A stretch of DNA of 64,000 nt, from IMG/VR virus record IMGVR_UViG_3300034105_002232; one strand, written 5' to 3'. The position numbers and the translations under genes were made by a program. The notes beneath the pieces are model-generated. The model saw only the letters and a list, made by a program, of their open reading frames with translations, was not told where the DNA came from and did no database searches. Origin of the DNA: a virus. This document shows, piece after piece, positions 8,212 to 61,292 of this stretch; the stretch's first letter is position 1, and the number at the start of each line of letters is the position of its first letter.

Positions 8212-8780
8212 TGTGGTAACCTTTGTTGAATAAGTTTAACAACCTCGGTGTTCAATACCACTTCATAATGATTACAGTCCAGTTCAATCAGTTCCATGAT
8301 ATCATTGCGTTTCTTTTGGCTGGACACTGTTACTACTCCGTCGTTGGGTTTAGATAACCAAGGTGAATCACCTTGTGTAGTAACTATGTTGCACCATGGC
8401 TGTTTTACTTGGATATCTCTGGCATACCGCATGGCCCACGAATTTGGTCCAATGTCTTTTAACAGTCTGCTGTACGGCAAAAAATACTTGGCCACATCAG
8501 CAACTTCGGCGCCGCCATAAGGAGTGCTTAGTGTAATTGCTCCCAGCACCTGATCCGGGAATTCAGCTGCCAGGTGCAAGGCATACACACCACCTAGACT
8601 ATGACAAACGAAGAACATGTCTTTTTTGTTTGCCAACTGATAACGCATATCAGCTAGATTTTTTTCAAACCCGTTACGACTATCATAATTGATCAGCCAA
8701 TCGTTGCCGCCCACGTGTTCTCTAATATAGTTGAAACTCTCACTAGTAGCACTGGCACCATGGATATAAACTATTACCAT
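8208..8780 (-). CDS. Alpha/beta hydrolase
   Basis: YIHG, HSLGG nucleophile elbow, NDGVV and NH triad motifs. Confidence 0.85.
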   Translation of the reverse strand: MVIVYIHGASATSESFNYIREHVGGNDWLINYDSRNGFEKNLADMRYQLANKKDMFFVCHSLGGVYALHLAAEFPDQVLGAITLSTPYGGAEVADVAKYFLPYSRLLKDIGPNSWAMRYARDIQVKQPWCNIVTTQGDSPWLSKPNDGVVTVSSQKKRNDIMELIELDCNHYEVVLNTEVVKLIQQRLPQ

Positions 8781-9934
8781 TATGTTCGATACTCCGGCCA
8801 TAAGTCAGCAAACCGGTATTTGAAGTCGGGCCAATAAGTCTGCTCTTGCTTGGAGTGCCACTCATATAAATCATTGCAGTTGTCTTTGCTGGTAGTTGTG
8901 TTTCTAATGCTGTTGGCCATTTCTTGTAAGAAAGTTTTTTGTCTATGCCATTTATGGTACGGTATAGATTTTTCTAACTCTTGTGCTGCCAGATCCCTAA
9001 ATTGTTTAGGTAAATTAATTACTGATAATACAACAGGGTTATTAAGTTCATTCCATCTCATATTTGGCAAATTATTATCGGCAAAGTATTCGTGTACCTG
9101 TGATAAATTTAATGCGTTGTAAACCGAATACACACTGGCTACCCCAATTAAATGCCCAGGCCGATCCTTTACAGCATCCTGCAGATACCTGATATTTTTT
9201 AACAGTAAATCCCAACTGGCTCCATGCCTGACATACTCAAATTTCTGCTCTACTGTGTCAAAGCTGATATCCCACACCACACGATTTTTGTCCAGTAACT
9301 TTTTAAATATTTGATTATTTTCTAATGGAACACTTAGGTTTGTTATTAGATTGATATGTACATCAGGGCCAATGGCATCCAGCAATTGATCATTTTCTTT
9401 TTGCAATAATGGTTCACCACCAAGTAGTCCTAGATTTTTCAATGTACTTTGATTTGACTCAATGAATGCGATTATTCCAGGCATGGTGTTCCTGTAGTCT
9501 AATCTTTCTAACGGAATTTTCTGATGAGACGCCCATATACTACTTGCTTCGGGACCGCAATAGGTACAACTAAGATTGCAGGTATTAGACCAACGTATAT
9601 CTAAGTTTTGTAGATGCTGATCTTGGATAGTATCAAGATTAATAGTTTTTCTTTCTGATATATCATTATACCAATTTCTTTCGCTGGTACTAGTCATTTG
9701 TTCCTGTCTTTCACAGATAGAACAATTCTCATGAGTTTTATTTTCTGCAATTGCCTGTTTGATATGTAAGATCTGGCTAGATTTAATTACATCTTGTATT
9801 GGGGTTATTCGTAAATCTGCCAGGGCAACTTCGCCAGCACAGCAGGTTTTGTAAGACCCTTGTGGATTGATGTGTATGTTGGTCCAAGGTGCGTAGCAAA
9901 AGTTTTTGCCAATTGAATTATCAAGTTTTATCAT
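8780..9934 (-). CDS. Radical SAM protein with N-terminal twitch/SPASM-like Fe-S domain
   Basis: CNLSCTYC, GGEP; N-terminal CYAPW..CC..CxxC. Confidence 0.9.
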   Translation of the reverse strand: MIKLDNSIGKNFCYAPWTNIHINPQGSYKTCCAGEVALADLRITPIQDVIKSSQILHIKQAIAENKTHENCSICERQEQMTSTSERNWYNDISERKTINLDTIQDQHLQNLDIRWSNTCNLSCTYCGPEASSIWASHQKIPLERLDYRNTMPGIIAFIESNQSTLKNLGLLGGEPLLQKENDQLLDAIGPDVHINLITNLSVPLENNQIFKKLLDKNRVVWDISFDTVEQKFEYVRHGASWDLLLKNIRYLQDAVKDRPGHLIGVASVYSVYNALNLSQVHEYFADNNLPNMRWNELNNPVVLSVINLPKQFRDLAAQELEKSIPYHKWHRQKTFLQEMANSIRNTTTSKDNCNDLYEWHSKQEQTYWPDFKYRFADLWPEYRT

Positions 9935-9945
9935 TGAATTACCGT

Positions 9946-9968
9946 TAAAATGCGGCCTAGGCCGCATT
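9946..9968 (-). terminator. Intrinsic terminator after dps
   Basis: AATGCGGC-CTAG-GCCGCATT followed by T run. Confidence 0.7.
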
Positions 9969-30115: not shown

Positions 30116-31255
30116 TTACTCCTTTAACAAAGCCGTTAGTTTTGGTAAGTAATCATTTATGTTCAAATTTCTAAACTCCTTTGTAAGATTGATTTCTTCA
30201 AAAAATTTATTCCGCATAGACGATGAGTAATTTACTGTTTTAATATAATCAACTAAAAATGATAAATTAAAGTTTATTTCCTGCAAATATGTAATTATAC
30301 TATGCTTTTCTTTATCATTGAATATTTGTAGAGAGTAATGCAACGGATATTCGCAAAATATCCATGCAGGTTCAATTTTTAGTTCTTGCACTAATTCGAT
30401 AACAGGATCCAAATACAATATGTTTAACGCACTTATTACAGTATGAGTATTAAAACTGATGTTAGATTCACGCAAAAATTTAATATTATTTAAAACAGCA
30501 TCCCAACTACCTGTAGTTCTAATGTAATAAAATTGCTCTTTGGTGGCATCTAAGCTTAATGTGATATGTACTTTTTTAAATTTCTTAAGTGTATCGTGCA
30601 TTTTACCATGAATTTCTACAGTTCCGTTAGAAGTGTAATATAAGGTACAATTTGATGAGTTGCCGTCACTAATAATCTTTTCTAATATCTTCAGATGACT
30701 TAAATTTAAGAAAGGTTCACCGCCCATAATAGATACTTTTTCGACTGAACTAAAATCTTCGTTACAAACATTCTCTAATAGAGATTGTGTGTATCCGGCA
30801 CCTGTATATTTTTTATTTGGGAATAATTTCTTATGCTTCCATTCATCCTCAATCCAATGACTAGAACTTGACCATGATCCGCAGGTCCTGCAGGCCAAGT
30901 TACAATTGATCCCGCTATTAATTACTAAATTTTTTATTTTCTTATCAACGATCTGTTTGTTGTATGTGTCATGTAATTGTTCCAAGGTTGGATTATCATC
31001 TTGAAATAGCGCATATTGCCGTAAACTTGTTATTCCGTTGTTCTCATCGTCCCAGCACCCGCTACATTCAACACTTTTTATTCCTTTTAAAATATTTTTT
31101 TGGATATTCACAACTGTAGGAGAATTAATTAGGTTATGGAACGTTATGTTTTTTTGTCCTGGTATCGAAACCTCGCAACAAATGTTTGATAATCGATGAT
31201 CAAATCCACCAAAGGCATTGGTGCAATAGGTGTTAAGATTTAATTTGTCTGTCAT
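30116..31255 (-). CDS. Radical SAM protein with N-terminal Fe-S domain
   Basis: CNLACRTC, GGEP; same architecture as 8780..9934. Confidence 0.9.
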   Translation of the reverse strand: MTDKLNLNTYCTNAFGGFDHRLSNICCEVSIPGQKNITFHNLINSPTVVNIQKNILKGIKSVECSGCWDDENNGITSLRQYALFQDDNPTLEQLHDTYNKQIVDKKIKNLVINSGINCNLACRTCGSWSSSSHWIEDEWKHKKLFPNKKYTGAGYTQSLLENVCNEDFSSVEKVSIMGGEPFLNLSHLKILEKIISDGNSSNCTLYYTSNGTVEIHGKMHDTLKKFKKVHITLSLDATKEQFYYIRTTGSWDAVLNNIKFLRESNISFNTHTVISALNILYLDPVIELVQELKIEPAWIFCEYPLHYSLQIFNDKEKHSIITYLQEINFNLSFLVDYIKTVNYSSSMRNKFFEEINLTKEFRNLNINDYLPKLTALLKE

Positions 31256-31930: not shown

Positions 31931-33361
31931 TTATTTAAGATAAGTTTTAAGATTTTCGTTCCACTCAATAAGTTTTGTTTCTAGTCTATCTAGTGGCCAT
32001 TTTTGCCTTCTTGCTTCGGTTAATATGTTTATTGTTCGCTGGTAGCGTTCTGCTACAGTAAAATCTTTATTTTTTTTGCTACGATAAAATAATACTTTGT
32101 TTGCAGTTTGATTTTTAACATCGTCTGTATAATACAAATTGGGGTCAGCAGACAGTCTAGTATCAGCTAGTAGTCCTGGGTGTCCGTTTATTGCTGCAGA
32201 TGAGATAGTGCCATCTGCAACATATGGCCGCCATCTTTTAAAAATTTCAAGATATTCTAAATGTTCTTGACTGGTTTCGGACGGCCATGTGGTCATTAAC
32301 TGAAATTGATTTGTTAACCCTACTCTGCTGCAGTTTTCTAGATGCCAATCTACGTCTTCGTTAGTAAATTTTTTATCCATTTCAAATCTTATACGATCAA
32401 CGCCAGTCTCTATGCCTACATTAAGAAAGAAACCACCGGAGTTCTTAATCATATCAAACACCTCTTTGCTATGACTGGCACTAGGTCTTATGATAAAGAA
32501 TCCGCTCCATTTAAAATTACGTGCATCAGGGTAATTATTCAAAGTTGCGCAAAATTTGCTAAATTCTTTTAGACTACCGTTAAGTAAACTATCTGCAAAA
32601 TAGAAATTTTTAGTGCCATGAGTTTCGTAGTATCTAATCATTTCCTGCGCTATGCTACTACCTTTTCTATAACGATATTTAGGCCAATATTTTTCTATAT
32701 CACAAAACGTACATTTCTTAACGCACCCCCTGCTGCCATAAACATAAAAATCGCGCTCGTTATTGGGATAATCGTACATATCTAGGTTATAATAGTTATA
32801 GTTTGGTAGCGGTAAAACCTCAATATCTTCAATTTGCTTGGCTGGGATCCCATTAATACCGGGGTATTTGGTATTACCTTTAAATAATTCTACTAAACAT
32901 ATTTCGCCCTCGCCTTGTATGTAATAGTCTACTAAATTCTTATTATACAATAACTCACCGCAAGTTTCCAGATTAAATTTAAATTCAGTGCCTGGCCCAC
33001 CTACAACAATTTTTGCTCTAGTTTTTCCTTTTAGCCACTTACACAAATCATAGAGACTAGCAAAGTCAAACATTGTCAACTGTGACAACAAGATCCAGTC
33101 AACGTCTAGAGTACTAGCAGTAAGATTATATTCATACAGATATTCTGGTACTATGTCAATATCGTACACAAATGAATATGTTTTCTTTTTATTTTGCCAC
33201 CATAAATTTTCATTATCGCGAAATAAATTTATATTTAAGTCTATAGCATGAACTTCGTGCCCGTTCTGTCTGGCTACCTCGCAGAGAATTGCTCCAGCAA
33301 TTGGTGGCCGATGGGGTTCAAGGTAAGGTGTGTTTATTACTAGCGTCTTTGTTTTTTGCAT
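31931..33361 (-). CDS. B12-binding (class B) radical SAM enzyme
   Basis: VVGGPG, GEGE and SRGCVKKCTFC motifs. Confidence 0.9.
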   Translation of the reverse strand: MQKTKTLVINTPYLEPHRPPIAGAILCEVARQNGHEVHAIDLNINLFRDNENLWWQNKKKTYSFVYDIDIVPEYLYEYNLTASTLDVDWILLSQLTMFDFASLYDLCKWLKGKTRAKIVVGGPGTEFKFNLETCGELLYNKNLVDYYIQGEGEICLVELFKGNTKYPGINGIPAKQIEDIEVLPLPNYNYYNLDMYDYPNNERDFYVYGSRGCVKKCTFCDIEKYWPKYRYRKGSSIAQEMIRYYETHGTKNFYFADSLLNGSLKEFSKFCATLNNYPDARNFKWSGFFIIRPSASHSKEVFDMIKNSGGFFLNVGIETGVDRIRFEMDKKFTNEDVDWHLENCSRVGLTNQFQLMTTWPSETSQEHLEYLEIFKRWRPYVADGTISSAAINGHPGLLADTRLSADPNLYYTDDVKNQTANKVLFYRSKKNKDFTVAERYQRTINILTEARRQKWPLDRLETKLIEWNENLKTYLK

Positions 33362-51047: not shown

Positions 51048-51878
51048 TTACGTCCAAAGTGCATCTCTAATTTTGATCAGGCGAATCATCATGGCCTCAT
51101 CCTCCGTGCTGTACTTATCTTCTAGCTCACGCATTTTCTCATGCATGGCGTCAGTGTTAACTGCATCATCACCGTAGTCATCTAGATCGTCTAATATACC
51201 TCGACCATTACCCCATCTTGTCTCGCAGTAGGCTGTCCATCCGCTGGCTTCCATGGGCTCTACACGCATGGGTCGATACACAGTCCACCAGTAATACAGG
51301 TCAAGTATTTCCTGTGCGCGAACAGCTTGATAAGTGGGTTTGCCATACTCGGGATTATCTTTGTCCGTCCACTCATCATCTTGTTTGAGACCACGTGCCC
51401 AGTCAAGACTGGCTATACCAGCAGCCGGGCTGCGCCAAGTGCGCCAACGAAACCATCCAGTAGTATACCAAGGTGCAGCAAATTGCTTGTAGGCATCCTG
51501 GTTCCAGGCCACATGACTCCAGGCCTGTTCTACTTCTACAAAATCAACAAGCTCATTGAACAGGCAATAAAGAAACCGGTTACCAACGTCCAGCCAACTA
51601 CCGGGTTTGATATCTCGTGGATGGGCAGTAAGAGCATGAGTGCGAGTAACCCAACGGTTATTAACATAATACTTAATATCATACAATTTGTCCGGGATGT
51701 AAAAAATAAAGTTCTGCAGATAAGTTAGCCCATCGTCGGCCAACCAGTAACGAACAGGATGTGCCTGTTTGGCTCGGGCTGTCCACTCACGCCAACCTTT
51801 ACTGGTCTCTGCAGCGGGGCTTGCTGTGCCACGCAGCCAGTCGGCAAATTTACTGCAACTCCAATAGTGATTTCTCAT
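51048..51878 (-). CDS. Trp-rich hypothetical protein
   Basis: Start MRNHYW via ATGA overlap. Confidence 0.7.
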   Translation of the reverse strand: MRNHYWSCSKFADWLRGTASPAAETSKGWREWTARAKQAHPVRYWLADDGLTYLQNFIFYIPDKLYDIKYYVNNRWVTRTHALTAHPRDIKPGSWLDVGNRFLYCLFNELVDFVEVEQAWSHVAWNQDAYKQFAAPWYTTGWFRWRTWRSPAAGIASLDWARGLKQDDEWTDKDNPEYGKPTYQAVRAQEILDLYYWWTVYRPMRVEPMEASGWTAYCETRWGNGRGILDDLDDYGDDAVNTDAMHEKMRELEDKYSTEDEAMMIRLIKIRDALWT

Positions 51879-52162
51879 TGTTTGATCTCTTTCTGTACAG
51901 CCGGATCTGTTTGTTTTTCGTTCACACAATAGCCGCCTTTGAACTGATAAACTGTTGATTCCACAGACATTCTTTCATAAATTTCATTGTTGAAACACTT
52001 GTACGGGTCTTTGTATATGTTTATACCATAATAATACACGCCATATCCGATACCACCCAGTACACCCAGTACCAATACCAAAATCACAATGCTTTTGAGG
52101 TTGCCCATGAGACTGGGTATAAACGCCAGTATCTGCGGCAAGAACTTTAATATGTCTTTCAT
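51875..52162 (-). CDS. Membrane protein
   Basis: TM segment. Confidence 0.6.
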   Translation of the reverse strand: MKDILKFLPQILAFIPSLMGNLKSIVILVLVLGVLGGIGYGVYYYGINIYKDPYKCFNNEIYERMSVESTVYQFKGGYCVNEKQTDPAVQKEIKQ

Positions 52163-52377
52163 TCAGCAATCCCAAAATGTTTTTTGATTTCGTACTCTAG
52201 TATACTTGAACTCTTGGCTTGTGTAAACCCTTGTGGGGTATTTTCTGCATCTTTGATTACCTGAATGCATTCTGCTATCAGCCTGTTTGCGAAACGTTGC
52301 CCGGTTGAATTCCACATAGGGCTAAGGTAAATGTTAAAATGCGACTGTTCGGCTAGTTCTTTAAAAGGATCATCCAT
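52159..52377 (-). CDS. Diverged MNERI/KFAELIV/HFGVEE family member
   Basis: ELAEQ, RFANRLIAEC and IKKHFGIAE. Confidence 0.7.
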   Translation of the reverse strand: MDDPFKELAEQSHFNIYLSPMWNSTGQRFANRLIAECIQVIKDAENTPQGFTQAKSSSILEYEIKKHFGIAE

Positions 52378-52394
52378 TGTTCAATTCCAAAAGG

Positions 52395-52781
52395 TCAAGG
52401 TGTGTCTTGATTGGATAGGTCAGCCCCATCCTTGAATGCTTGTTTTATATTCTTTTTAAAATCTTCTTGCTTACTACTATTTTCAATCCTGGCACGGCGA
52501 TCATATTGTGATTCTGCGCTGTTAATATCGGAAGGAGGATAATAACGACCTATACCTTCCACGGTAGGTTCGGCTATACCAAACTTCTTTCTTAGATTGG
52601 ATTGATCTGTTTGGCTACCCAAAGAATTAATACATTCCCGCACAATCAACTCGGCGAACTTTTGTTCAAACATTTCATTATAATACTTTGTAGACCATTC
52701 AGTAGGGTCTTGAGTGAGTTCTACTTTCGCAAAAGCATACTGCCTAGCCTGTTCAGCAAGTAGTCGAATTCGTTCGTTCAT
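52395..52781 (-). CDS. MNERI/KFAELIV family member with C-terminal extension
   Basis: MNERIRLLAEQA..KFAELIVREC..KFGIAE. Confidence 0.8.
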   Translation of the reverse strand: MNERIRLLAEQARQYAFAKVELTQDPTEWSTKYYNEMFEQKFAELIVRECINSLGSQTDQSNLRKKFGIAEPTVEGIGRYYPPSDINSAESQYDRRARIENSSKQEDFKKNIKQAFKDGADLSNQDTP

Positions 52782-52876
52782 AGTCCAAGCCTTCCTAAAA
52801 TATTGCCCAACCACATCATTCCAACTCCAAGCATAATGGTGCCAACGATTAATATTTTGATTTCAGTTCTATTCAT
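52778..52876 (-). CDS. 32-aa single-TM peptide (not in ORF track)
   Basis: MNRTEIKILIVGTIMLGVGMMWLGNILGRLGL; ATGA overlaps at both ends. Confidence 0.7.
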   Translation of the reverse strand: MNRTEIKILIVGTIMLGVGMMWLGNILGRLGL

Positions 52877-53091
52877 TCTTCTACTCCGAAATGTAATATA
52901 CCACCTGTGCCGTTGTCAAAGTGTTGTTCAATACGCTGGGCATAATGGTCGCCTTCTTTGGTGCCATCCATTACAGCATTAGTACATTCAAATACGATCA
53001 ACTCGGCGAACTTTTCTATAATATCTTCAAAATCATCGCCATACTTATAAAACCCTGCTTGTTTAGCAAATTCTTTAATTCGTTCGTTCAT
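52873..53091 (-). CDS. MNERI/KFAELIV/HFGVEE family member
   Basis: All three blocks present. Confidence 0.8.
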   Translation of the reverse strand: MNERIKEFAKQAGFYKYGDDFEDIIEKFAELIVFECTNAVMDGTKEGDHYAQRIEQHFDNGTGGILHFGVEE

Positions 53092-53297
53092 CGCCATTCT
53101 CCTGATCTACGGATTTCTTCGTCAGTAAACTGTCCGCCCATACGGTCTGGATTCTCAATCCAATCACGGGTAGATTTAGTTTGGTCAATGACCATTTTAA
53201 GTTGCTGGATTTCTTTGTCTTTCATCGTCAACATGACCTTGGCCATCTCTAATCGTTCTTCAACGGGAAATGCCTCATTGTCTAAAATCTTGTTCAT
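53088..53297 (-). CDS. Unrelated hypothetical protein inside the array
   Basis: ATGA overlaps at both ends; PDRMGGQF motif. Confidence 0.7.
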   Translation of the reverse strand: MNKILDNEAFPVEERLEMAKVMLTMKDKEIQQLKMVIDQTKSTRDWIENPDRMGGQFTDEEIRRSGEWR

Positions 53298-53533
53298 TCT
53301 TCAACTCCGAAATGTTCTGCGATACGGTTGACTGCTAAATCAACATAATAAACACAATCCTCTGGTGTACTTGTATAACTGTCGCCTGCAACTTCCATAC
53401 ACTCACGCACAATCAACTGGGCGAACTTTTCTATATGTTCCTCTACCGCCAACTCATGACCTTTATAGTCAACTGGCATATATGCTCCAAGACCAGAGCG
53501 ATCATATAGTGCTAGTAAAAGTCTTTTGTTCAT
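53294..53533 (-). CDS. KFAQLIV/HFGVEE family member
   Basis: Blocks B and C present. Confidence 0.8.
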   Translation of the reverse strand: MNKRLLLALYDRSGLGAYMPVDYKGHELAVEEHIEKFAQLIVRECMEVAGDSYTSTPEDCVYYVDLAVNRIAEHFGVEE

Positions 53534-53742
53534 TCTTCAACTCCGAAATGTTCTTTAATCGCTTTGTGGATCATGTGACTTCTATCTGCTTTTTCCAAGT
53601 TATGTTGTCTAGCAAATTCAGCACATTCTCTAACAATCAACTCGGCGAACTTTTTACATTCTGGCATATCCCAGTGCCCAATACCAAACATATCTTTTTC
53701 GTACCCAGCCTGTTCAGCAAGTAGTCGAATTCGTTCGTTCAT
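53530..53742 (-). CDS. MNERI/KFAELIV/HFGVEE family member
   Basis: All three blocks present. Confidence 0.8.
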   Translation of the reverse strand: MNERIRLLAEQAGYEKDMFGIGHWDMPECKKFAELIVRECAEFARQHNLEKADRSHMIHKAIKEHFGVEE

Positions 53743-53969
53743 TCTTCAACTCCAAAATGTCGTGCTATTGCTAATCCTACCCACGCTACACCTGTTTTTT
53801 CTTTATTATCATCAAGCATAGCATCTACTTTATCAACCTGTGCCAAGCATTCCTTAACAATCAACTCGGCGAACTTTTGTGCATCAAAATGTAGATGCCC
53901 ATCAATCAGTACTCCGTTGACGTAATGGCTCCAGCATTGCTTTTCAAATTCTCGAATTTGTTCGTTCAT
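53739..53969 (-). CDS. MNEQI/KFAELIV/HFGVEE family member
   Basis: All three blocks present. Confidence 0.8.
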   Translation of the reverse strand: MNEQIREFEKQCWSHYVNGVLIDGHLHFDAQKFAELIVKECLAQVDKVDAMLDDNKEKTGVAWVGLAIARHFGVEE

Positions 53970-54223
53970 TCTTTTTCTCCTACCTGGATATTGATCCCAA
54001 AATGCTTCTTGATTGCATCAGCATACTCATGCCCAGTCCTGGCAGTCTTGTTCTTCCTGATCACAATACAGGCTTCTAACAACAACAGGTGAGCCAGAAC
54101 CTCTGCGTACAATGTTACATCTGTATATATTCCAAAAGGACAATATATCTTACCATCTCTACCAGGGTACACCAATTTGGATTGCCGTAGTAGTTGCAAT
54201 ATGTGTTTGTTAATATCTGACAT
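53966..54223 (-). CDS. Diverged member of the same family
   Basis: LAHLLLLEAC and IKKHFG. Confidence 0.6.
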   Translation of the reverse strand: MSDINKHILQLLRQSKLVYPGRDGKIYCPFGIYTDVTLYAEVLAHLLLLEACIVIRKNKTARTGHEYADAIKKHFGINIQVGEKE

Positions 54224-54225
54224 GA

Positions 54226-55065
54226 TCAAACCTCTAGGTATTTAAGTTGAAAATGATCTGCCTGCTCTTCCTGTCCATCGTAACCCCTGGGATTACATAC
54301 CACACGGCAAGTACCAATCATGTAATCAAACTCGTGATGGGTATGACCGTGTGTCCATAGCTTGATATTGCGATTATCTAAGATAAACTCATCTAGATTG
54401 GTACTGTAGGCTCCGTTCATGATGTGCTCATGTTTGTAGCGAGGATGCGTACTGGCCTTGCTGGGGGCGTGATGCCCCACCACCACGGTCTTCTGTGTGG
54501 GATACACTGCCAGTACCTTTCTGAGTACCTCCAAGAACTTCTTGTGATCCTGTACAGAGTCTTCAGGCAAGAATTTTCTAGTATAGAACCCTTCACGCTT
54601 GGTGGTATTCTTCACAGATTGATAGTCATTCATCATGAAACGAATCTGTTGCATAGTAACAGGATCTTCACCGTTCATGTCTGTCCACAGTGTACCACCA
54701 TAAAACAACACACCGTTGATGATACGCCATTCTTTGTCTAAAAAATGTACATTGTGCAAGTCACCAAAGGTGCCACGAATCGTTTTGGCAGTAGCGGCAT
54801 AGTCACCGTGGTAGTGTTCGTGATTGCCCATGATCAAGATCACCTGCGGGAATCGTTTACTGCAACGTTCAACAAAATCAAAATAACGGCGAGCACGTAG
54901 ATTCATACGAGTGGGCATCAACACATCATTAAATGGTTCAAGATAGTTTAAGTCTTCAACCACAAAGATATCACCACCCAGGATCAAAACATCCGCATCT
55001 TGATCATTGACCAGATCAAGATCACCAAATTCCAAATGCAAATCACTGCACACTGCAATTTTCAT
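54226..55065 (-). CDS. Calcineurin-like metallophosphoesterase
   Basis: SDLH, GGD, GNHE and HGHTH motifs. Confidence 0.9.
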   Translation of the reverse strand: MKIAVCSDLHLEFGDLDLVNDQDADVLILGGDIFVVEDLNYLEPFNDVLMPTRMNLRARRYFDFVERCSKRFPQVILIMGNHEHYHGDYAATAKTIRGTFGDLHNVHFLDKEWRIINGVLFYGGTLWTDMNGEDPVTMQQIRFMMNDYQSVKNTTKREGFYTRKFLPEDSVQDHKKFLEVLRKVLAVYPTQKTVVVGHHAPSKASTHPRYKHEHIMNGAYSTNLDEFILDNRNIKLWTHGHTHHEFDYMIGTCRVVCNPRGYDGQEEQADHFQLKYLEV

Positions 55066-59660: not shown

Positions 59661-60235
59661 TGATTAATAAAATAAGGTTTAAAAAAATTAACAGTTTCTT
59701 GCCAAGACGAAAAGGTAGATGATTGAAATCTAAGACTAAACGTCCATCTATGTTGATTGCTATTATTTAAAATTCTATGAGGAATTGCTGCATTAATTAA
59801 TGTTGGTTTTAAAATTTGACAACGTTCAATTTCAGTTACTTCGTTGTCATCCCATTGCTGATATTCCATGTTGCTAAAATTCTTTTTAGATTGCGTAATC
59901 ATGTCATGATTATTGGGCTGGTACCAAATCATATATGAATCTAGCCCACTTAATACCCAATTAACACCAATTTGGTTAGTACCAGGTGGCCCATCACGAT
60001 GTATAATGCTGTTCATGTTGGGTGGACCACAAAAAAGATGACAATTGTTAATTTTTAATTTATGTTCGGCCGCCCAGTGTTGTATATCTAGATGCACTAC
60101 TTCCAAATTTTTATCTTCAACATAATGCCAGAGATACCATTTTTGTTGGTCAAAATTTTCTTGCTCGAGCGCAGGAAAAACAAAATTGTCTTTTAACGGA
60201 TTAGTAAAAAAGTTCAATTCATGATAATTTTTCAT
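59657..60235 (-). CDS. Cupin/2OG-Fe(II) oxygenase-like protein
   Basis: IHRD...PH.I.N...R..FSLR motif. Confidence 0.7.
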   Translation of the reverse strand: MKNYHELNFFTNPLKDNFVFPALEQENFDQQKWYLWHYVEDKNLEVVHLDIQHWAAEHKLKINNCHLFCGPPNMNSIIHRDGPPGTNQIGVNWVLSGLDSYMIWYQPNNHDMITQSKKNFSNMEYQQWDDNEVTEIERCQILKPTLINAAIPHRILNNSNQHRWTFSLRFQSSTFSSWQETVNFFKPYFINQ

Positions 60236-61292
60236 CTTGTACTGTATATTTTTCATACTTTGCTTTTTCGTTAAAAATATGTTCTCTATCTTTGTCAACT
60301 AGCCTAGCAAAATCATCTAGACTATATAATAACCCATTGTGTCTAATCTGAGAAGCTCTAAATGTCTGTGGAGTATTAAAAATTTTATTTAGATAACAAA
60401 TGGTTCTTGCCATGGTACGTTTATCGCCATCTTTGACATTGGTAGGTCTTTTATGCAACGTTATTTCTTGATCCATGAATACAATTTGGCCATCTTGCCA
60501 ATTTTGAGTATGCACATATTCTTCTTTGTACACAACTTTTTTTAATTCGTCCATTATACGATTACTTTCTGCAATAGACATACCAACGAATCCGTCAAAA
60601 CTATGACTAGGAATCTTCATACCCGATAACCCAGTTGCTGTTTCTCTATACAGCCGAGTCTCCATGCCATCAATAGGAACCATGTTATAATGTATAATCA
60701 ATGTTTGTACAGGATTCAATCCAGGGGCCATCACATGATCAACCCACTTGTGTTTTACAAACAATTCTTTAACTGTGCTGCGCATGTCTGAGCTCAATGA
60801 TTCATATGCATCGTGTGTGCATAAAAACTGCGTTTGACTGTTTACAGTATCGCTTATGCTTTTGAGACCAATGATCCGTTGCCCATCATCAAATGCACAC
60901 TGATCGCTGTGCCAATCCAATTCTCCATTTTGGAAGATTCCGGATGGTCTACCCTTGGGGCCTTTTTTATAACTCACCATGCTTACTGCCTTATGCATGT
61001 CGTTTCCTGCTGAATTACTGACGTAACCCAAGTTTACAAGAATTTCTCTCCAATGGCGGCCTTCAATTTTCTTTTCAGTCACATACTCGTGAATTAACGC
61101 TCTACTTGGATCACCCCATTCTAACATACTTTTATACAACATTTCTGTGGTAATATCTTGTTCAACAACTACTATACACTGTGATGCACACAATTTACCC
61201 AATTCTGTAATCTCGTCCGGCGACGCCCAATCAATATCGTATGCCTCGAGGCCAACACTGGCCCCATAATTTTTCAATGGTCTGGTTTTCAT
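60219..61292 (-). CDS. TauD/TfdA-family 2OG dioxygenase
   Basis: WHSD, TQF and W..G.IV..D...LH.R motifs. Confidence 0.85.
   Translation of the reverse strand: MKTRPLKNYGASVGLEAYDIDWASPDEITELGKLCASQCIVVVEQDITTEMLYKSMLEWGDPSRALIHEYVTEKKIEGRHWREILVNLGYVSNSAGNDMHKAVSMVSYKKGPKGRPSGIFQNGELDWHSDQCAFDDGQRIIGLKSISDTVNSQTQFLCTHDAYESLSSDMRSTVKELFVKHKWVDHVMAPGLNPVQTLIIHYNMVPIDGMETRLYRETATGLSGMKIPSHSFDGFVGMSIAESNRIMDELKKVVYKEEYVHTQNWQDGQIVFMDQEITLHKRPTNVKDGDKRTMARTICYLNKIFNTPQTFRASQIRHNGLLYSLDDFARLVDKDREHIFNEKAKYEKYTVQDEKLS

Follow-up and report, generated by a model that had tools for sequence, protein, structure and literature searches.

Conserved linkers that guide the exchange of modules between phages are a long-standing proposal, and in the Neisseria pilE/pilS minicassettes and in Borrelia vls, conserved nucleotide blocks between variable minicassettes anchor segmental gene conversion. 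The gp38 adhesins of T2/T6-type phages carry conserved glycine-rich motifs that separate hypervariable segments (PMC3157838), small open reading frames (ORFs) of T4-type phages are shuffled through the repeats known as PeSLs (PMC2839356, PMC4122927), and the T-even internal proteins present diverse payloads behind one conserved capsid-targeting sequence (PMC3012670). Here we describe an array of nine small, translationally coupled ORFs (54229-52159, all on the minus strand) in a 64,000-nucleotide (nt) stretch of viral DNA, IMG/VR record IMGVR_UViG_3300034105_002232, which we refer to as the window. Three constant blocks (A, B and C) recur in these genes; the segment between A and B is termed V1 and that between B and C is termed V2. 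We consider it probable, at roughly three chances in four, that the locus is a co-translated array of acidic three-helix proteins whose V1 and V2 modules are reassorted by recombination at the constant blocks. The evolutionary mechanism is well supported by breakpoints in the window's own genes, in near-identical strains and across the family.

Layout of the array and its constant blocks

We scored all nine ORFs with a family profile hidden Markov model (HMM) that had been built without any window sequence, and seven of them were identified as full-length family members (E 4e-32 to 3e-8). An earlier note on this DNA, made from the letters alone, had described seven coupled paralogues plus two unrelated ORFs (g5 and g3), and both the ORF map and the independent HMM bear this out. 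The outermost copies are also the most diverged, as that note had it, with g9 (3e-8) and g1 (2e-13) giving the lowest family scores. The ORFs and their immediate neighbours are as follows (aa, amino acids).

54226-55065, minus strand: metallophosphoesterase gene (Pfam Metallophos 1.6e-12; phrog_1649 9e-57), the synteny anchor
53966-54229, minus strand: g9, diverged family member, 87 aa from TTG 54229 or 85 aa from ATG 54223; HMM E 3e-8
53739-53969, minus strand: g8, family member, 76 aa, ATGA overlaps at both ends; HMM E 5e-25
53530-53742, minus strand: g7, family member, 70 aa, nearest to the family consensus; HMM E 4e-32
53294-53533, minus strand: g6, family member, 79 aa; HMM E 3e-20
53088-53297, minus strand: g5, unrelated 69-aa ORF between a block C and a block A; HMM E 0.58
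52873-53091, minus strand: g4, family member, 72 aa (74 aa from ATG 53097); HMM E 2e-19
52778-52876, minus strand: g3, unrelated 32-aa single-pass membrane mini-ORF; no HMM match
52395-52781, minus strand: g2, family member, 128 aa, with a non-canonical block C and a 58-aa C-terminal extension; HMM E 3e-19
52159-52377, minus strand: g1, diverged family member, 72 aa; HMM E 2e-13
51875-52162, minus strand: membrane ORF, 95 aa, coupled to g1 by ATGA, at the downstream end of the chain

ATGA start/stop overlaps link the genes at eight places (g9/g8, g8/g7, g7/g6, g6/g5, g5/g4, g4/g3, g3/g2 and g1/95-aa membrane ORF), and a 17-nt gap between g2 and g1 is the sole break in the chain. All seven family copies are complete ORFs. 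At the upstream end, the start of g9 overlaps the stop of the metallophosphoesterase gene; homologues of the 95-aa membrane ORF adjoin that gene in 12 related loci.

Family members share an N-terminal MNERI (block A), a central KFAELIVREC (block B) and a C-terminal HFGVEE (block C). The MNERI first given for block A is exact only in g7, g4 and g2; g8 has MNEQI and g6 has MNKRL. The segments between the blocks could not be aligned with one another within the window, which agrees with the earlier description of them as unrelated. A motif search for block B (AAGTTCGCCGAGTTGATTGT) found five copies within 3 mismatches against 0.01 expected per window, and block C has four copies against 0.00 expected; neither block occurs elsewhere in the 64 kb. 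A repeat search of the window recovered the same A, B and C block families. The copies, whose starts agree with those first reported for block B and are displaced by one base for block C (52873, 53294, 53530 and 53739 being correct), are:

52642-52661, minus strand: block B, in g2
52994-53013, minus strand: block B
53409-53428, minus strand: block B
53633-53652, minus strand: block B
53857-53876, minus strand: block B
52873-52893, minus strand: block C
53294-53314, minus strand: block C
53530-53550, minus strand: block C, at the g7/g6 junction
53739-53759, minus strand: block C

Probable exchange of modules at the blocks

For comparison, we collected 80 related viral loci through the metallophosphoesterase gene (loci are numbered L). 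The A-V1-B part of g7 is 93% identical to L088 from the start of the gene, and the match stops at block B. The same part of g2 is 88% identical to L008 and L037 and likewise stops at block B, and in g6 a match of 89-90% identity to L011 and L008 (53560-53409), which begins at the upstream junction, ends at this block. In g4, the upstream half (53135-52979) is 94% identical to L008 1-156 and the downstream half (53015-52873) is 89% identical to L037 7883-8025, with the two matches overlapping in block B only. L037 in turn joins the V1 of g2 to the V2 of g4. The g3 cassette, which consists of block C, the 32-aa ORF and block A, has 97% nucleotide and 100% amino acid identity in L008 and L037, and the metallophosphoesterases of these two loci are only 65-69% identical to that of the window. 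Because g7, g6 and g4 break at block B and the g3 cassette is bounded by C and A, exchanges use all three blocks.

Similar breakpoints separate strains that are otherwise nearly identical. Seven contigs from seven samples carry g7 exactly, and three of these switch sequence at block B; L001 and L002 match the window at 100% identity. L004 does so over ~1.5 kb down to 52997, then has 30 mismatches from 52996, inside block B of g4, and different genes downstream. Two contigs from separate samples, L003 and L005, keep 99.8-99.9% identity as far as block B of g2, where another V2-C begins (L003 2656-2895; L005 1129-1350). This V2-C is canonical, gives a 79-aa product in place of the aberrant C end of g2 and is of a type also present in L011 and L165. 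The array is thus not fixed among relatives, and the pattern that the earlier note had named as contrary to exchange, in which whole genes align and co-evolve with no breakpoints at the blocks, was not found.

Two further observations concern individual alleles. In the window allele of g2, the canonical block C with its stop is missing, and the reading frame continues for another 58 residues. Between L007 632-838 and the window (53163-53309), eight substitutions are clustered in or beside g5 with none elsewhere in 1 kb, which could be another small replacement tract.

To compare the two modules family-wide, we split 294 genes from 90 loci at profile columns. Nucleotide identity in V1 was uncorrelated with that in V2 (r = 0.03). 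V1 was alike (at least 85% nucleotide identity) and V2 below 60% in 85 gene pairs, the reverse was true of 31 pairs, and both modules were alike in 26. Recurrent V1 types were found with at least two V2 types in 25 of 39 cases, and recurrent V2 types with at least two V1 types in 20 of 35. The points at which identity collapses lie mostly in the 33-nt block B or a few bases from it, and the remainder are set a few bases inside the shared module. This clustering is probably strengthened by selection for products that stay in register and can fold.

Protein records from several sources repeat the mosaic pattern seen at the nucleotide level. Among the 119 best database matches to g7, median identity is 0.94 in V1 and 0.29 in V2, with 91 distinct V2 strings, and protein P0008 joins the V2 of g7 to an unrelated V1. 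The proposed mosaicism, in which one A-B segment occurs with different B-C segments, is therefore present family-wide, in the window genes and among near-identical strains. Variable modules differ in length and cannot be aligned. Related modules differ mainly at synonymous sites, with a ratio of nonsynonymous to synonymous polymorphism (pN/pS) of ~0.16, which marks the modules as conserved cassettes subject to reassortment rather than as stretches under hypermutation. Of the two hypervariable regions first suggested, the two variable parts stand, but they are discrete modules under purifying selection and not mutationally hypervariable.

One V1 type, that of g7 residues 13-29 (consensus GY..DMFGIGHWDMPEC), stands well apart as the most promiscuous, accounting for the 91 V2 strings in 119 best matches. 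In addition to the conserved Cys40 and His65, this type has a further His and Cys, and the four together hint at a metal site.

The coupling seen in the window is also common in the family. A 4-nt start/stop overlap ends 216 of the 292 family genes with downstream sequence, and the overlap is followed by a family member in 59 and by an unrelated ORF of at least 30 aa in 138 (97 clusters). Mini membrane peptides that turn up repeatedly, and a small Cys-rich ORF, are among the unrelated ORFs. g3 itself is present in five other arrays (L008, L037, L090, L148 and L163) and starts within the stop of a family member in L008, L037 and L090; of the fetched loci, only near-identical contigs have g5 whole, and L160 and the cut edge of L008 have fragments of it. 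A GGAG Shine-Dalgarno sequence and the ATGA stop/start, which had been assigned to block C, were seen directly in the sequence at the H-F-G-V-E-E junctions, and the block C end fits the part of a generic translational coupler. The further proposal of a gene-capture platform draws only indirect support from the 138 coupled non-family ORFs and from g3 in five other arrays, coupling by itself being no proof of capture. Two of the small ORFs (downstream ORFs listed under L090 4941-5165 and L099 4001-4189) recur: one of 33-35 aa is Cys-rich with a CxxC...HxC pattern and occurs at 3 loci, and a 40-aa membrane peptide occurs at 6 loci.

The protein family and explanations for its blocks

The family is itself undescribed and is very large. 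An exhaustive profile search identified at least 6,298 clusters at 50% identity (E<=1e-3), almost all from freshwater viral metagenomes; a word-indexed search gave at least 2,286 matches among 8,000 candidates, and at least 469 stretches in IMG/VR were confirmed as family. Among 185,579 prokaryote species genomes there were only 21 matches, all on contigs of freshwater metagenome-assembled genomes and mostly short, which are probably mis-binned phage DNA. The context of these genomes points to freshwater Burkholderiales, Actinobacteria or Bacteroidota as candidate hosts. A megablast search with the region and a tblastn search with g7 found no match among 50,697 deposited phage records, so the family seems absent from cultured phages. 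Members are acidic (median isoelectric point 4.9) and ~77 residues long, and several copies are usual, with two or more within 8-13 kb at 67 of 90 loci. Once named, the family would supply an annotation for a sizeable fraction of the small genes now called 'hypothetical' in freshwater viromes.

Copy number differs widely among relatives: L008 (1-12822) has 16 members within 12.8 kb, flanking the metallophosphoesterase gene on both sides, and many loci found through that gene are without any member. Longer or fused forms are rare, with 12 found and none carrying a known domain. Three proteins (P0128, P0164 and P0233; 121-158 aa) have two family domains each and are probably read-through fusions at an ATGA junction. 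P0175 (995 aa) matches profile positions 43-67 ten times and is possibly an unrelated repeat protein or a spurious helical match.

AlphaFold2 predicted g7 to be a three-helix bundle (83-row alignment; predicted local distance difference test (pLDDT) 84) with helices at residues 3-12, 27-48 and 52-66. In this model, block A forms helix 1 and V1 the loop that leads to helix 2, whose centre is block B. V2 spans the distal end of that helix, the turn and the beginning of helix 3, in which block C lies. The model is in keeping with the constant helical scaffold with two variable regions that was first proposed. The nearest structures are those of uncharacterised proteins of 'uncultured Caudovirales phage', and no solved structure resembles the g7 model beyond generic helical packing.

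A homodimer model of g7 had an interaction prediction score from aligned errors (ipSAE) of 0.48 against 0.00 for the best control, with three runs agreeing in at least 80% of contacts and a partner pLDDT of at least 68. This mark was reached by 20 of 30 proteins solved as one-chain pairs and by 1 of 23 solved as single chains, counts that apply only roughly to a prediction made with a custom alignment. The predicted interface is formed mainly by residues 4-14, 31-41 and 61-66, which belong to blocks A, B and C; the variable parts contribute fewer contacts. A Cys40-Cys40 contact is part of the interface. The modelling thus supports a putative dimerisation through the constant blocks. If such a dimer is real, paralogues with the same blocks could also pair together.

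Our explanation of the array is as follows. No stretches other than the blocks would be similar enough to allow homologous recombination in register, whether between paralogues or between co-infecting phages. Exchange at the blocks would reassort V1 and V2 and would also move whole cassettes, including unrelated small ORFs, the outcome being new combinations on a fixed scaffold. Block C encodes the C-terminus and at the same time supplies a ribosome-binding site (RBS) and the ATGA stop/start for any gene that follows. We infer that ordinary homologous recombination, with no dedicated enzyme, both swaps the modules and keeps the blocks uniform. In the proteins, the blocks would form the core and the dimer interface, V1 and V2 would be exposed binding surfaces, and the targets bound might be variable host or phage molecules.

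Several points weigh against this explanation. No recombinase was identified among the window proteins. The longest exact run at block B in random gene pairs from different loci has a median of 10 nt and reaches 20 nt in 12%, and homology-driven exchange is therefore plausible mainly between closer relatives. All mosaics were drawn from assembled metagenome contigs, and the blocks are exactly where chimeric joins would fall. The codon-level conservation of the blocks could instead stem from an unknown DNA or RNA function. Finally, no function can be deduced by homology. None of the nine ORFs had a significant match in Pfam, PHROGs or NCBIfam (g5 being without a Pfam match at the gathering threshold), the best PDB sequence-profile match was to designed helical repeats (E 0.015), and Foldseek against PDB returned nothing below E 4. 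The best match in a wide VIA-align search had a Z of 5.0, which is generic for helices, and a feature search of the ESM Atlas gave no usable match. In a full-text literature search, the block B and C peptide motifs occurred in no paper and 'mneri' occurred only within unrelated words.

A more specific version of the array's purpose would be a combinatorial binder repertoire, in which the blocks serve as a shared dimer interface through which paralogues pair, V1 and V2 contact targets, block nucleotides are kept for the sake of exchangeability, and the library neutralises variable host defence or takeover targets. We regard this as doubtful at present, although worth stating. If it were true, the arrays would be a viral counterpart of cassette-based variation systems. 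More generally, if the proteins are binders, the arrays would offer a ready catalogue of small natural scaffolds with two exchangeable surfaces, perhaps counter-defence factors.

The blocks could also serve primarily at the nucleotide level, for instance as a translation signal or as a site bound by a regulator, a small RNA or a nuclease, with recombination as a by-product, and the codons of the blocks bear directly on this. All five window copies of block B use AAG, TTC, GCC, GAG and TTG, which are minor codons in the phage's large genes (synonymous share 0.24-0.28). We surveyed codons in 272 members at no more than 80% identity; the loci were found by peptide patterns or by the neighbouring gene and are therefore not codon-selected. 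Pairwise synonymous divergence (pS) inside the blocks was set aside because two-fold sites inflate it, and codon frequency was compared with background instead. At their block positions, AAG was used in 87% (background 37%), GCC in 74% (29%), GAG in 84% (21%), TTG in 86% (31%), CGA of block A in 86% (33%) and GGA of block C in 92% (40%). The Val codon directly 3' of block B is free in the same members (GTG 43%, GTT 40%), as is the Phe codon within block C (52%/48%). Unconstrained synonymous sites are thus saturated, and those inside the blocks are held fixed.

This bias, being position-specific and family-wide, is what a nucleotide element would produce, and block C does have such a role through its GGAG, spacer and ATGA; its nucleotide constancy is owed in part to this double duty as the RBS and start of the next gene. 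Three of the four junctions that were folded are less stable than shuffled sequences, as expected of open initiation sites, and the fourth is more stable (z -2.5). Block B, however, lies mid-gene without such an obvious second role, and RNA folding, Rfam and promoter and terminator scans found no nucleotide role for it. Two block B regions showed no stable structure (z +0.75 and +1.19), and with one of the six folded regions more stable than shuffles, there is no shared RNA structure. The array region had no Rfam match, and its promoter-like (18 against 15.0 expected) and terminator-like sites (4 against 3.5 expected) were at chance. We therefore consider it unlikely that the blocks are primarily nucleotide elements, a reading that is in any case compatible with exchange at the blocks and does not exclude it.

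A capsid-targeting leader is a less probable origin for block A. Here the family would consist of packaged and injected proteins with variable payloads, like the T4 internal proteins. The consensus does open with a stretch of ~10 residues ending in hydrophobic-Ala-Glu, which we take to resemble the T4 leader with its (L/I)-x-E cleavage motif. Only 44% of members, however, have the Glu there and 62% the Ala, and in the models block A is one of the helices that make up the bundle and contributes to the dimer interface. The T4 late-promoter motif is not enriched in the window and does not occur near the array, and our searches found no homology to internal proteins. Together these observations make a leader function very unlikely.

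It could be that the mosaics arose during metagenome assembly, as chimeras joined at the repeated blocks, since each breakpoint falls at a repeat common to many genes and to co-occurring phages. However, the same junctions were assembled independently across samples (L003/L005, L094/L097, L128/L129 and L109/L110/L112), and protein records from several sources agree with them. The exact repeats are only 20-33 nt long, presumably shorter than the final k-mers of the assemblers used for these contigs (e.g. 'k141' names). Independent re-assembly and short repeats argue against chimeras, short of excluding them, and we judge this account highly improbable.

Plain tandem duplication and divergence, with the blocks kept for protein needs and no exchange of segments, would suit tandem, same-strand, coupled paralogues of a kind common in phage accessory regions and blocks that coincide with predicted core and interface residues, but it is already contradicted by block synonymous sites fixed on minor codons while their neighbours vary, by reciprocal mosaics (near-identical V1 with unrelated V2, and the reverse) and by strain-level breaks at block B, and hardly any likelihood is left to it.

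Two candidate systems were also considered and rejected. The array does not look like the target of a diversity-generating retroelement: the modules differ in length, there is no template copy and the repeat search found the constant blocks only, although no search aimed at a reverse transcriptase was made. An integron-like arrangement was set aside as neither an integrase nor inverted repeats of the attC kind turned up near the array in a search that was not exhaustive.

The window belongs to a large, uncultured phage for which deposited phage genomes hold no near relative. Among its products are tail or structural proteins, three radical SAM enzymes, DnaJ, a family B DNA polymerase and two ATPases, one ClpA-like and one clamp-loader-like. 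The radical SAM enzymes, one with a SPASM and one with a B12-binding domain, and a TauD-family dioxygenase are encoded at 8780-9967, 30116-31255, 31931-33361 and 60219-61292. Their presence in one window suggests peptide or nucleotide modification chemistry.

Comparison with described systems

The gp38 adhesins are the nearest architectural parallel to the individual proteins: in both, one protein is made of short conserved, core-forming motifs that alternate with segments variable between phages (PMC3157838). The gp38 protein is a virion adhesin of ~260 residues encoded by a single gene, whereas the array encodes cytoplasmic-looking helical proteins of ~70 residues in multi-copy, coupled arrays, each with just two variable slots. 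Pfam and PHROG searches showed no sequence relation between the two and the best fold Z, 5.0, is generic for helical proteins; the likeness appears to be architectural only.

At the level of gene arrangement, the array resembles the PeSLs, where short repeats flank small non-essential ORFs and exchange inserts, deletes or replaces genes between close relatives (PMC2839356, PMC4122927). PeSLs are intergenic promoter-terminator units, each with a sigma-70-like early promoter and a terminator stem-loop between ORFs, whereas the repeats of the array are coding, its junctions are 4-nt coding overlaps between stop and start, and its promoter- and terminator-like sites are at chance. Because block B is an anchor within the gene, half-genes are exchanged here, unlike in PeSLs.

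The T-even internal proteins share with the array a short constant N-terminal block before unrelated, fast-replaced bodies, in a setting of phage counter-defence (PMC3012670). They have a single constant block, and their family is defined by packaging and cleavage; the candidate cleavage residue of block A is poorly conserved.

Conserved blocks interleaved with variable minicassettes are also the hallmark of the Neisseria and Borrelia systems. Those systems use one expression site with silent donors and serve immune evasion. In the array, by contrast, each copy is complete with its own RBS and exchange also takes place between genomes; instead of one expressed copy and promoterless or truncated donors, we found seven complete ORFs that are overlap-linked except at the 17-nt gap.

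The array can be regarded, by analogy with gp38, the PeSLs and the T-even internal proteins, as a variant of a mechanism with phage precedents, and it is probably a member of none of these systems. Linker-guided module exchange here works inside a gene of 210 nt, and its breakpoints are visible between otherwise identical strains. What is new relative to the precedents is that the anchors are coding, that one anchor lies mid-gene, that the arrays are multi-copy and coupled, and that the family is undescribed.

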